DNA from: Patellaria atrata CBS 101060
Lineage: Eukaryota
Direction of reading: 5' to 3'
Length of the DNA: 64,000 nucleotides
Assembly: GCA_010093705.1 (NCBI GenBank)
Contig: MU006095.1
Coordinates: 806,001 to 870,000 of the forward strand
Under the pieces are notes generated by a model, which had not been told where the DNA came from, did not search any database, and saw nothing but the letters and a program-made list of their open reading frames with translations. A program made the position numbers and the translations under genes. The stretch's first letter is position 1, and every line of letters begins with the position of its first letter. This document shows positions 13,041-19,332 of this stretch, one piece after another.

Positions 13041-14983
13041 TTACATCATCATCGCATCACCCATTCCGGAAAGGCCCGCCCCGGCTACGTTGACGTTGAT
13101 TCCCTGGAGATTAGTCGGTCCGAGAGCGCTTAGTTTGAGTTCCGGGTTGCAATTTGCAGAGTGTTGACGATGGTATTTCAATCCGTTAAGATTTTTATAC
13201 CGCTTGCCACACACTTCACAACGGTACGGCTTCTCTTTCTCCATTCCAACGGTACCGGGATAAGGAATAGATGTGACCGGATCCACTATCGAGAATGTGC
13301 CGTCACTGTTCTCCTTGAGTTGCTGGTTTTGATGTCCATGCTATATAGCGTTAGTGCACAGTACCGAAAAAGTCGACTGATAAAATCACATACCTGTTTA
13401 TGATACTTGAGTCCATTTTGATTCTTGTAAGCTTTTTCGCACCCTATCACCGGGCACTTGAAGGGTTTATTCTCTTCGATAGGGAATGGTCCAATGTTGC
13501 TTCCTAATCCGGCCATCAGTTGCTGTTCGCGTATTCGCCGTGCAAGCTCGCCGTTACCCCCTATCTGACCTTGAGCAAGCGCAAACTGCAATTGTTGTGT
13601 GCTCATAGCGCCTCCTTGTTTGCTGAAAAGCCTTTTTGCCGGATCATCGATGGTAAGATTTGCCATATCGCCGCTATTGCCAAACAGTATAGAGTTCCAG
13701 TCCTGATTATTGCCACCCTGGAGAAGTTGTGCGTTAAAGTTACCTCCTCCCACGTAATTTCCTGCCATATCAAAATCTAGTTCCGCGGGAGTACCGGGGA
13801 CTGAGGAGTCCGGTGAACTCTTGTTCTGTGTATATTGCGCTGACTGAGTTCCGAGTGTTGGTGTGTTCACTGATGAGACTGTGGGATTGTTTTGCAGAGG
13901 AAATCCTTGATTAGCAGACGGTGTAGTAGGAGTTGCGTTCCGTAGCCCTTGATGCGACTGTATAGCGTTCGCGACTCCCACATTTAGGGGGGGTATACGG
14001 GTGTTATTTTGTTGTTGTACAGGCACAGGTGGCGCGGCATCATCCATTTCCATATCCATGTCATCTAAAGGGTCGGAATCCTGGATAGGTGAAAGAGGCG
14101 TTTGACTAAAGCCGGCGTCTGAAGGTAATCGCTGAGCGGTATATGTCTGCATTCGGCTCAGTTGAGAATTCTGTCCTTGTCTTGAACTCCCTTGCAGACC
14201 CATGCTCTGTGGCTGCTGAGTATTACCAGTCTGGTTTCCGGAAGTTGAGCTGGACTGAGGTACAATGGAATTCGATCTCGGAGGTTGATTGGTCCCTGAA
14301 GATGGTCTACGTAAAGAGTGTAATGCCGGAGCAGGAGTTTGCGCGTGGGCTTCTTCGTAATGCTGAAGCAAATCGTGTAATGAATCGATCTTGAGGTCAC
14401 AACACGCATATCCTTGTAGGAACTGTGCTTCCATCTTTGGAAGGTATGATGAGGATTGGTAGGAAGAAGACTGATGGAAAGCATGAGGGGATGATCCTCC
14501 CATAATAACTCTGCACAAATCTCGCGTTAGTATAATGTCCGAAATCGAAGAGGGTTATGATCCCGATATGCAAGAAACCAGCAAATTGCAAAGACCGAAT
14601 AACTTGTGGCATCTTATATATTAGATGGGTACTCACTCGTTCGCGACCCAACTACCCATAGAGAGACCCCCCCAACTCATCCCCCCCATGACACTTCCAG
14701 TGCTACTTTCTCTTCGCGGTCTCTCCTTCATGGTTATTGGCCTAGCTCCTGATCCATAATATGACGAGGGATTCTGATTACTTATTGAATCATGGCGACC
14801 ACCAAGACTCGGTCGTCCGTCAGCCGGCGTTCTGCTGTTGATATTGATCGCAGCTTGTTGCTGGACGGTAGCGCCCGCTTCCTGAAGCGCTGATGTGAGG
14901 TTTGAGGTCTGGTTTCGCGGTGACGCTGAGTTGTATCTCTGAGGGGTTGTGATATCGATAGGAGATGCGGATTGAGTCGCCAT
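13041..14983 (-). CDS. SFP1: Split C2H2 zinc-finger transcription factor Sfp1 (ribosome biogenesis/TOR regulator)
   Basis: [25 protein letters not shown]....[36 protein letters not shown] and [24 protein letters not shown] motifs. Two introns. First AUG at 14983 (a longer non-AUG form is possible, see findings). Confidence 0.93.
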
Positions 14984-16147
14984 GGCTAGAGAGGGTGGTG
15001 TGTATTTGGAGAACAAATCGAAATCCCCAGAATCCAAGAATGATAAGTCAGAATCTGGTAATTCTGTATAATTATAATGATGCAGCTTCCGGTGCCAGGA
15101 GAAGTAGAGGGGTTTCTCTTTCTTAGGGCTCCCAAATAGCGGAGATGCGGCGGCTGTAGTGGCGGGAGAGGTATCTGTGTCGACCGGCGACTCTTGCCCT
15201 TGTCTTTCGACGGGCGAATGATAGAGGGAAGGTGGTGATTCTGATGAGGAATCCAGCTTTGAAGTTGTCGGTGGCGCTTGTGTTGTTGTGAGCTGGGACT
15301 GAGAGCTGGATGTTCAGTTGGGAAGGCAGACGGGTACTGTACGGTAGCGAGATCGGGCTGTCGTCGAGTCAAAGCGAACCGAACTCAAGATACAACCGAA
15401 TATAACTACTCAGGTCGATGCTACGGTAAGTTAAGAGTCAAAGGCAAATCACAAAATACTATCTTCAATGTATACGGCTGAGATATAGTTCTGAAGTGAA
15501 ACAGTGAGGATGGGAGGCGCTCGCGGCTATGTACTGGACTGTACCACAAGGTCGACTTATTCACCATGACTTAATATGTTGACCGACTTCTAGGCTGGCC
15601 CTCAATGAGGATGCAACCTAGGCTCGCTGCCCCTATGAACCGCTGTTCATATTCCCCTTGATTTGGTTTGAATTCGTCTTTTGACTATGACTACGGGGTA
15701 CACTGTAAGGATTAACTGAAGGGAACTCTACCACCTCGGTCCTTCTTAAGAGACCATCTTACTCTCTCTAACACAATATCTATCTTTCTTCAGGATTCCT
15801 ATATCTGGTGTGTGCAGTCTGATGGGTTGTTGAAAATTCCTGGATATTTACAAATTGACCATGCCACCAATCCAAGCACCGACTACGCGTCTAAGTAGTA
15901 GTGATCATCCGGCTCAGTGACAAACGCGTCGTTAAGGATATGTTCTTTAGGTACAGTAGACTAATAATTTCAACCGCAGTTGCAGTTGATATACAGACCA
16001 AAGTACTCCGTACGTGGGACGGGTAAGAGGCAAAAAGAGGAAATCAGTCCGAGTGCGGTTAGGACAAGGTCGGAGCCTGCCACGAGCCGTCGGCCTACCC
16101 GAACACACGAACAATCCCTCACATGGGAACCAAGGGGGGATCTTTCG

Positions 16148-16175
16148 CACGCTTCACGCTTCACGCTTCACGCTT
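16148..16175 (+). repeat. Short tandem repeat (CACGCTT)x4 upstream of SFP1
   Basis: cacgcttcacgcttcacgcttcacgctt seen directly. Confidence 0.85.
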
Positions 16176-17570
16176 CGTTACCAATTCCCACGTGGCTAAC
16201 CTGCCAGTTACGTACCGAAAATGCCTGGAATCCCGACAATTCCGATAACTCTTCTTTCTTCTCAGTTCTACCACCAAAAAACCATCTATCATCACTTCAG
16301 TATCCATGTTCTCAATTACAAAGCATAAAGCTCAAGAAATATTTCACTTTAACTGACAACATAAAAGGTACAGTAGCAGATCCAAGGATCACTCTAGCAT
16401 TCATTCATCTCACCGCCTCGCCCTCCGCCTATCCGCCGCAACGCCAAACTTCGTTCCGCCCCCCGTTAAGGCAAAGTTCTGACATCTGAGCTCGGCGTTA
16501 TGACTCTAGCCCATCGTCCCCTTTCTTACTGATTGGTTAAGGATTCATCTTCATGATCTTTTGGTCCTGAAACAAGTGCGACTTGCACAGACCCAAAATC
16601 AAAAGGGAAATTTGAGAGACCTTCAAGACGATCTTCTGGTAACCAGTCGCGTGCCGCAGGTGTATGCAGTTTCCATCCGAGCTTTCTCCGTAGATGGTGC
16701 ACATCTCCCAAATTTCGTCTCCACAATAATAGACAACTACTTTACGACAACATCTCTGTGCACATCATCTATCAAAAACCAGTATGAACTCACTTCAACT
16801 TCATATTTTGATAAAGGACCGCTCCTTGTAAATTACTGTATCAGAAGTTATCTACAACTGGAGTACTACTTCTTATCTTATTACAGTAGACCCTTTCCTT
16901 TCAATTCAGGCTGCATTACAAAAGATACGGCGGCTGGTACGGTGTGTGTCTTATTAATAAATGAGGATACCTATTGATTGGGGCAAGGTCGTTACTTGAT
17001 ATTTATTAATGCCACGGAGCTATATGTTTCTCGGGTCAAGAAGTAGCCTGCCTTCTATATAATCCCCCCACACATATTACCCTTCAGGGAAATACTTCAG
17101 AGCAGCTAACATGGTGCCAGACAACAATAAGTAAAAAGATCCGGTCACATACACCTAGGATAATTGCAAGGTACCTTCAATGTTACCTTAACCTTTTACA
17201 CATTGTTTCTCTCTCATCTGAATACTCTTCTGAAATTCAATCGAGTTCAAACTGAACGCTCTTTTTGCCATCGATATCCCAGCGATGCTTCTCTCCTTGA
17301 GTTACACTCTCTTCACCCCATATAAACGTCGGTATTCGACACTAGCATTTATATCTTTTTTACAGACAAACTGGTAGAACCTTTATCAGTCTTCCGCAAG
17401 GTGTGGTAGGTTATAGATACTCTCCATAACACCTCTGCCGTTCAAATAAACACCGAGATCCTGCAATGGGAACCCCCAACTCCTTATAGAGTAGTAATGA
17501 TCAAAGGAAAAGCACTCTCTAGTAGAACTATATCGCCCATTCTTCAATTCCAACTCATAATCAATCCTCT

Positions 17571-19332
17571 TTAGAGTCCCACCACAACGTTGCGTACTAG
17601 TGATGGATCAGGAGGCGTCGGCGTCCTCATCGGATAACATGGTAGTTTAGATCGGTCGAATATTGGTTTCATAGGAGCAACCTCTAAACTATCCAGTCCG
17701 TATAACCTTGCTATAACATGCGCCTGGCCGATCCCAAAGACGTTACCGATGTATTCATATTGCTCCCTTATGTATATCTTATGTTCTAGAGATATACCCT
17801 CTACCGTAACTGCAGCGCGTAGTGGCCAGAGCAATGTATATCCACTCAAGGCCGTGCCTGTTGGGGTTGCTTGAGGGTTTCCGTTTTGGTCAATGCAACC
17901 AAATAGATAAGGGACAGAAGCACATATGTCATCCGCCAATTCTAGGATAGCATTTTTCCATATCACTTGAAGCTTGCCGAAAGGACTCTCCACTGTGATC
18001 TTCTGGTGTTGACACAATTCCAATAGGCACTCCAGCAGTCGGATCCGGATGCATCGATAATGGTTCCACGTGATAGCGCGGAAGATATCCATATGAACAA
18101 TAACCTTTCGGTTCTTGTATTTGGTCCATGAACAGTAATTCCCCCGATCTTCAAGGAGACGACCAGTGGCGCTTGCGACCACCTTATATCGCCACATTCC
18201 AAGTTCATCTTCAAGAGATGATCCTGCTTCAATAAGCTCGTTGAACCTTCCTTCCTCTTGATCCTCAGGCCTCAGGCTTAGAAACTCATTGACATCTATG
18301 CGGAAATGACCTAGGTTGGTAATCATTCTCAGCAATCGTGTTACTGAAGAATCTTTAGGCAGAAGCGATAACCATGCGGTGGTTTCAGGGGGTGGCCTCT
18401 TTCGTTTTAGTAAGTAACCAATACTCTAGAGCCTATCAGCATGCACAACATACTATGCCGTCAGGACGTCAAACTGACTAGTTGAGTCTGTAGAAAGCGA
18501 AATAAGCCTCTGCCTTCGTTAGTACGTAGTAGATCGGGACCCCGTAGTTTAATCATCAATTCGCGGCCGGAATGATGCGAGTCCCACATCTTATTCCAAT
18601 CCTTTTCTGCGGTAATGAGCTGCATGATCTTAGCAAGATCACCGAGACCGAAAACGAAGGTTCGGAAGTGGAAGTTGACTAACCTGATATAGCCCCAAGA
18701 GAAGAACAGTGACCAGCGTGCTGTCATTCTTCACATCTTCCGGGTTACTCAGGGTCGTATTCACCAATGGCAACGCTTTGCCATAATGCAAATGTGCTCG
18801 GAGAAGCATGCGAGGTTGTCTCGTCTGCTTTGCCAAAGAAGCTAGAGCTACTGCAGGCAATGCTTCTCGCAAACAGGGTAATACGTCAACCCTACAACAT
18901 AACGCTGGTAAGAACCAGAGATATCCGTACTCCGGCTGTGAATGCCCAGGTATTTCAGCATACTCGTTGAAGAATCTATCGATAGCTTGACTCTCAATGG
19001 AGGAATAAATCGACGGCGTGGCGTTGAATGATATGCCATGGCGCATACCATGGGTTTTCTGGAGTCTTGACTGAACTTTGCGCTGGGCGAAAGTGTTCTG
19101 GTTGACGAATAGAAGCTTGGTGTCTTCTCGGTAACCAGGACATGTTGCCCCTAGATTTACGCATCGCCTGCATTCCGGACGTTCTTCCCCGCACTGTATG
19201 GATTCCGGAATGGTAAGTCAATCCATATCGGGTAGCGAGGTGGTATTGGAGTGGCGTAGAATGTCTACCGACCTTTACTCGTCTTGCTCGACATGTGTGG
19301 CATCCACGCGACGGTCTCCCGATATTTCCCAT
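17571..19332 (-). CDS. Zn(II)2Cys6 binuclear cluster transcription factor with fungal TF middle-homology-type region
   Basis: ATG 19332: MGNIGRPSRGCHTCRARRVK, intron, then CGEERPECRRCVNLGATCPGY. Downstream A..HYGKAL..VN.TL....KNDSTLVTVLLLGLY and LADDICASVPY..GYTLLWPL motifs. Confidence 0.9.

Follow-up and report, generated by a model that had tools for sequence, protein, structure and literature searches.

The window analysed here is a 64,000-nt stretch of the genome of Patellaria atrata CBS 101060 (contig MU006095.1, positions 806,001 to 870,000), and the SFP1 gene lies on its minus strand. Counted from the CUG codon discussed below, the coding sequence, as read with the help of the deposited protein P0001, consists of three exons. 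Exon 1 (14637–15256) ends at the donor GA/GTGAGT, and the deposited protein P0001 reads ...WVANEVIMGG...; it is followed by intron 1 (14511–14636), exon 2 (13394–14510), intron 2 (13341–13393) and exon 3 (13041–13340), which specifies the putative C2H2 fingers and contains the stop codon. The predicted product is 678 aa long if translation starts at the CUG, and 587 aa long if it starts at the internal AUG.

When the region upstream of the AUG (hereafter, the extension) was used together with exon 1 as a query, 81 homologues were recovered. The top match was P0001 itself, a 1136-aa protein of P. atrata CBS 101060 that matches the window at 100% identity across the query, while the relatives are named by their sources 'transcription factor SFP1' or 'Transcriptional regulator of ribosomal biogenesis proteins'. 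The Pfam scores obtained for P0002 were 22.9 bits for zf-C2H2 (cut-off 25.2) and 21.8 for zf-C2H2_aberr (cut-off 27), both below the cut-off. In Saccharomyces cerevisiae, Sfp1 is a TORC1-regulated activator of ribosomal-protein and ribosome-biogenesis genes; the yeast and P. atrata proteins appear to have C-terminal C2H2 fingers in common, and the orthology assigned here follows the source names of the relatives.

The SFP1 frame upstream of the annotated AUG

SFP1 is annotated as starting at the AUG at 14981–14983 (minus strand; context GCC AUG G), its 'canonical' start and also the proposed start of the short isoform. A first-pass annotation of this DNA had claimed that the frame stays open upstream of this codon, and this was confirmed: 110 codons separate it from the in-frame TGA at 15314–15316 that closes the frame. 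The peptide given in that annotation agreed with the translation except for one dropped threonine (the sequence reads TTTQ, not TTQ). A run of about 580 nt devoid of minus-strand AUG had also been reported, and indeed all frames are free of ATG between 15567 and 14983, a distance of 584 nt; this gap ranks second longest among the 2207 ATG-to-ATG gaps present in the window when both strands are considered. The in-frame CUG said to add 91 aa was found at 15254–15256, in the context TCAAAG CTG G, that is, with A at position -3 (15259) and G at position +4 (15253), 57 nt 3′ of the TGA. This codon, the proposed initiation site of the long isoform, does add 91 codons: the CUG plus the 90 that follow it (14984–15253), a segment that is free of ATG in all frames. 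Further in-frame CTG or TTG codons are present in the extension at 15085, 15037 and 15016 (minus strand); the CTG at 15254–15256 is the only good near-cognate codon from the stop to the AUG-proximal part.

The presumed 5′ leader is ATG-free over the 310 nt immediately upstream of the CUG (15257–15566). The nearest upstream ATG (15567), if transcribed, would open a 48-codon uORF (15421–15567, minus strand) with its end at 15421, 165 nt 5′ of the CUG. At 16148–16176, ∼900 nt upstream of the CUG, a 7-nt unit (CACGCTT on the plus strand) is perfectly repeated in tandem, with 4.1 copies; this array could act as a promoter element.

Two further frames of the minus strand likewise stay open at this place, one of 132 aa (14986–15384) that is +1 relative to SFP1 and overlaps the extension, and one of 81 aa (15123–15368). 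Since this reflects a stop-poor composition, the open SFP1 frame is by itself weak evidence of translation; it is the conservation of the extension in relatives that raises the finding above chance. The 132-aa frame, for which no evidence of conservation was seen, was taken as a by-product of the C-rich, stop-poor composition.

Conservation of the extension in relatives

Many of the 81 homologues covered more than 85% of the query, and those with a coverage of ∼50% corresponded to models that begin at the internal methionine. The block (V)KLDS..PPPL.HSP..RESTA.STP..TP..F.R.KK..W.RK...DLLFED.GD..FPLFP could be aligned in Pleosporales, Mytilinidiales, Botryosphaeriales and several lichen-forming genera, and a variant of it in Exophiala and Capronia.

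To extend the comparison to DNA, a single scan of metagenome contigs was used, which yielded 79 loci, 44 of them including the start region; with the window, these made 45 rows, from which 35 distinct sequences (below 97% nucleotide identity) were obtained. Left outside the tally were loci where the contig ends inside or just after the extension (for example L006, the first 17 nt of which are junk, L009, L023, L035 and L043), those with AUG-started N-termini of another type (L027, L046 and L075), and those lacking a recognisable extension (L018, L069 and L074). The first-pass annotation had proposed looking in orthologues for a conserved frame and amino-acid sequence with dN/dS below 1, and had named stops in orthologues as an outcome that would count against the extension. 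Of the 406 pairs formed by 29 distinct DNA sequences, 402 had a pN lower than pS; dN/dS ranged from 0.16 to 0.70 in the 25 closest pairs listed, except for one pair at 1.09. None of the 45 rows had a stop within the extension. These comparisons indicate that the extension is coding and is conserved as protein in relatives, and the CUG-started extension is very probably translated.

The proposed start codon lies at the edge of conservation

In the 35 distinct sequences the first conserved codon was CTG (26), GTG (6) or ATG (3), counts that come from related sequences and do not represent independent events. At the 32 non-AUG starts, position -3 was A in 31 cases and G in one, while position +4 was G in all 32. 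Positions -3, +2, +3 and +4 were invariant in 26 non-AUG sequences, with neighbouring third codon positions varying. The three AUG starts are in a weak context, with T, T or C at -3 and T at +4. The codon singled out earlier from the P. atrata sequence, at 15256, is exactly the codon that relatives retain as CTG or GTG, a purine being present at -3 and G at +4. The leucine of the PPxL motif, which is equally conserved, served as a control and was found to be encoded by CTC in 20 cases, CTA in four, CTT in three and CTG in two; CTG accounted for 23.5% of the other leucine codons.

The residue preceding the CUG is K, T or A depending on the lineage (I before three of the GUG starts), always with a purine at -3. 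A varying residue combined with a constant purine is what a constraint on initiation context predicts, and not what an amino-acid constraint does. Further upstream, the in-frame translations 5′ of the conserved block are unrelated across lineages, and the nucleotide information drops to background beyond about -12 from the start. At the Exophiala-like loci an ATG is present within one codon of the start position, and the leucine codon is there free to change (TTT, TTG); the annotated Venturia protein reads MPDSS... As a check for structure-assisted initiation, the 75 nt downstream of the start were folded in 29 sequences, and no conserved hairpin was found (mean z of -0.76).

In eight of the 26 non-AUG sequences an in-frame GTG with A at its own -3 position is present at -6 to -4 relative to the CTG (ACC GTG AAR CTG; loci L001, L003, L004, L005, L011, L015, L037 and L042). 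It is possible that this GTG is a second near-cognate start in those lineages. Prokaryote-style gene callers have used it, delivering proteins that begin with VKLDS or MKLDS.

Lack of a conventional AUG upstream of the proposed start in most relatives

Of the 32 non-AUG sequences, 28 have an in-frame stop 24–429 nt 5′ of the start, and the other four reach the end of the contig. The absence of an AUG in orthologues, a check put forward in the first-pass annotation, was borne out by 30 of the 32, which have no in-frame ATG between that stop and the start; the exceptions are L077, with one at -45, and L025, with one at -126. Two of the relatives, L002 and L003, are spliced transcript contigs: the junction of intron 1 is closed in both, while their genomic relatives have GA/GTAAGT...CAG at that place. 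They contain uninterrupted ORFs of 688 and 690 aa, respectively, counted from the CTG. Their leaders, of 64 and 189 nt, have no ATG in any frame and include in-frame stops at -51 and -120, and their nucleotide similarity to the genomic relatives is continuous across the CTG. An upstream AUG-containing exon spliced into the frame, which the earlier annotation had recognised as fatal to its proposal, is therefore absent from the spliced transcript contigs of these two relatives. For P. atrata itself no RNA run was listed, and the two runs compared with the window were DNA contigs colinear with it, free of joints and possibly the source of the assembly.

Public gene models are inconsistent at this position. 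About a third of those available for SFP1 begin at the internal AUG; others have unrelated N-termini, and the annotated N-termini located 5′ of the conserved block are mutually unrelated, while two 'partial' models begin exactly at the block. The unrelated N-termini of these other models are invented. In the case of P. atrata, P0001 acquires an AUG by joining a neighbouring gene (19046–17592, minus strand) to an acceptor near 15296. This neighbour, which provides the first 446 aa of the PF11951-bearing P0001, spans 17571–19046 on the minus strand and has its own stop at 17571–17573; it is not part of the feature studied here, and is relevant as a rival source of an AUG. The joining intron in P0001 is 2296 nt long, and its donor, near 17592, falls 8 codons ahead of the neighbour's own stop. 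A YAG acceptor is present at ∼15296, between the TGA and the CUG, and the P0001 junctions have GT and AG. Only one of the 81 homologues, P0001, carries PF11951. P0001 probably represents a chimera into which the annotation was forced by the lack of an AUG.

ATG depletion between the two proposed starts

Considering all frames, only two ATGs were present in the 10,602 nt of extension available, and 33 of the 35 sequences had none. Codon shuffles of the extension, which preserve its lack of Met codons and ignore the phylogeny, gave a mean of 47.3 ATGs and a minimum of 29 in 1000 trials. The density of ATGs was 0.23 per kb in the extension; the 327 nt of exon 1 that follow it had 19.4 per kb, and the leader 5′ of the CUG had 1.95 per kb. 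The three lineages that use AUG at the first start also keep the extension ATG-free.

The internal methionine that ends the extension is invariant in a 26-sequence alignment (A1, where it is M102), and its codon is mostly in a strong context: 31 of 35 sequences have a purine at -3, and 27 of 35 have G at +4. The near-total absence of ATG, together with an internal AUG that is invariant in that alignment and mostly in strong context, supports the earlier proposal that leaky initiation at the CUG and the AUG gives two isoforms.

Properties and distribution of the extension

The extension is rich in S/T-P sites and contains a basic patch and an acidic-aromatic DLLFED..FPLF block. A Pfam domain search with the extension gave no family, and no recognisable targeting signal or domain was found in it. 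AlphaFold2, run on alignment A2, returned a mean pLDDT of 58, a pTM of 0.15 and no secondary structure. According to this model, the extension is probably a disordered region with short motifs; that it acts as a regulatory, activation or interaction module, or is subject to regulatory phosphorylation, is a guess.

When a profile of the extension was searched against 1.84 billion representatives, 89 matches were obtained, most of them short exon-1 ORFs, with none visibly derived from other classes. Among the more distant relatives (43–45% identity), L027, L046 and L075 seem to start at an AUG with an N-terminus of another type (MKLTFDWL, MPSWGQWF), and L069 has no extension, with a stop 4 codons ahead of the AUG. 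The non-AUG start seems to be confined to some classes. Four Aureobasidium-like loci have identical protein starts after the internal methionine. Two of these (L066 and L067) keep a 94-codon extension that begins at ACC CTG G, and what is left in the other two (L018 and L074) is a degenerate remnant, L018 having a stop 36 codons upstream. The latter pattern looks like a lineage-specific loss of the long form; since the extension seems to have been lost there, the long form would be dispensable in at least that lineage.

DISCUSSION

The arrangement found at the SFP1 locus, a weak first start followed by an AUG-free run and a strong AUG, is, as judged from the DNA, the classical layout for leaky scanning. 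We consider it likely that a single SFP1 mRNA of P. atrata has two in-frame starts of translation, CUG 15256 and AUG 14983, and it is reasonable to expect that both isoforms are made. According to the proposed mechanism, scanning ribosomes would first meet CUG 15256, the context of which (A at -3, G at +4) is the best for fungi, and some of them would initiate there to generate the 678-aa long isoform with its 91-residue N-terminal region. The remaining ribosomes would scan 273 nt without encountering an AUG in any frame, and those that have passed the CUG would start at the strong AUG 14983, rendering the 587-aa short isoform. Initiation at the CUG in P. atrata and the accumulation of both isoforms are what we infer from the sequence comparisons.

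Three other explanations have to be weighed against translation from two starts. The CUG (or GUG) might be the sole functional start, in which case the protein would simply be 678 aa long and AUG 14983 would specify an ordinary internal methionine. The purifying selection acting on the extension fits this idea. So do other classes (L046 and L075), where the N-termini seem to begin at an AUG and to be similarly long but have no counterpart of the internal start motif, a pattern suggesting that the long form represents the ancestral protein in its full length. However, near-cognate starts let most ribosomes pass, ATG is avoided in all three frames of the extension (two observed versus 47 expected), the internal methionine is invariant and mostly in strong context, and the lineages with an AUG at the first position maintain both a weak context for it and the ATG-free stretch. 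ATG avoidance, a strong internal methionine and weak AUG contexts are expected only if ribosomes must reach a second start, and initiation at the CUG alone is unlikely.

The two remaining explanations dispense with the CUG. Conventional initiation could take place at an AUG exon spliced into the frame, be it as in P0001 (donor ∼17592, acceptor ∼15296) or from a small unannotated exon. The deposited P0001 does precisely this, has GT and AG at its junctions and shows 100% identity with the window across the query, but it needs the 2296-nt intron with a donor 8 codons before the neighbour's stop, and the PF11951 domain so acquired is found in one of 81 homologues. In addition, conservation of both amino acids and nucleotides ends within about 12 nt upstream of the CUG, the annotated N-termini 5′ of the conserved block are mutually unrelated, and the spliced transcript contigs of two relatives contain no such exon, all of which makes this explanation very unlikely. 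Alternatively, the extension could be untranslated, a 5′ UTR kept free of AUG in which the open frame merely arises from a stop-poor, C-rich composition. Two other minus-strand frames are indeed open at the same place, and ATG-poor leaders are usual for regulated genes, the leader 5′ of the CUG having 1.95 ATG per kb. Against this, the conservation is frame-specific, with amino acids that align across classes; pN is below pS in 402 of 406 pairs; stops are absent from the extension in all 45 rows; and the Exophiala-like lineages have an AUG that opens the same frame at the same place. That the extension is an untranslated leader is therefore most improbable.

Translation from two starts would place SFP1 beside several known systems. 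The closest is cpc-1 of Neurospora crassa, the homologue of GCN4, for which near-cognate-initiated N-terminal extensions conserved in Pezizomycotina have been described, with a dN/dS of 0.348 for the extension (Ivanov et al. 2017, PMC5487733). The same work identifies A at -3 and G at +4 as the most important context positions in Pezizomycotina. Both genes, cpc-1 and SFP1, are alike in being Pezizomycotina transcription factors with an in-frame AUG-less extension that is conserved as protein, preceded by a near-cognate codon with A at -3 and G at +4; three of the signs by which the cpc-1 extension was recognised in PMC5487733 (an open AUG-less frame, purifying selection and a conserved near-cognate codon) are also found in SFP1. 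The two genes also differ. While cpc-1 has several candidate near-cognate codons (CUG, AUU and ACG; PMC5487733), SFP1 has one start position, and while the cpc-1 extension overlaps regulatory uORFs and bypasses them, that of SFP1 contains no AUG uORF. The path to the main AUG in SFP1 is, unlike in cpc-1, ATG-free, which points to plain leaky scanning, and its start position toggles among CUG, GUG and AUG in different lineages.

Long forms initiated at CUG occur in c-MYC and FGF2, and in pairs of this type, as in C/EBP, the ratio of the isoforms can respond to initiation-factor activity. The isoforms of mammalian C/EBP alpha and beta arise from alternative in-frame starts, according to the discussion section of PMC5487733. 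C/EBP and the proposed Sfp1 pair have in common that a long and a short form derive from one mRNA by way of a weak first start, either a near-cognate codon or a poorly placed AUG, followed by a stronger AUG. In contrast, C/EBP relies on reinitiation with a small out-of-frame uORF, a mechanism of which SFP1 gives no indication. Among filamentous fungi, a CUG start is cited in PMC5487733 for IDI-4 of Podospora anserina, and a non-AUG start is described for the peroxisomal isoforms of 6-phosphogluconate dehydrogenase (PMC7214817). Both cases resemble SFP1 in combining near-cognate initiation with an N-terminal region hidden in what is annotated as 5′ UTR; the extension of the dehydrogenase is a targeting signal (PMC7214817), whereas that of Sfp1 has no recognisable one. 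Neither a non-AUG, near-cognate or CUG start nor an isoform pair for Sfp1 was found in the searchable literature, and the string 'sfp' is absent from the main text of PMC5487733.

A more far-reaching idea, which we regard as doubtful, is that the CUG/AUG pair works as a rheostat. The stringency with which start codons are chosen (set by the balance of eIF1 and eIF5, the availability of eIF2, or nutrient signalling) would determine the ratio of long to short Sfp1, the long form would carry a phospho-regulated acidic-aromatic module absent from the short one, and the ratio would feed back on ribosome-biogenesis transcription; on this view the evolutionary alternation of CUG or GUG (perfect context) with AUG (poor context) would reflect selection for a first start of intermediate strength.

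Gene annotations miss the probable conserved CUG start of SFP1 in several fungal classes. For the study of near-cognate initiation and leaky scanning, SFP1 is an unusually clean case, with one start position, a context that is strictly conserved and natural CUG, GUG and AUG variants. Sfp1 is a central growth regulator, and a hidden, conserved N-terminal region together with a second isoform would alter the way in which its regulation is approached across many filamentous ascomycetes, plant-associated and lichen-forming ones included.
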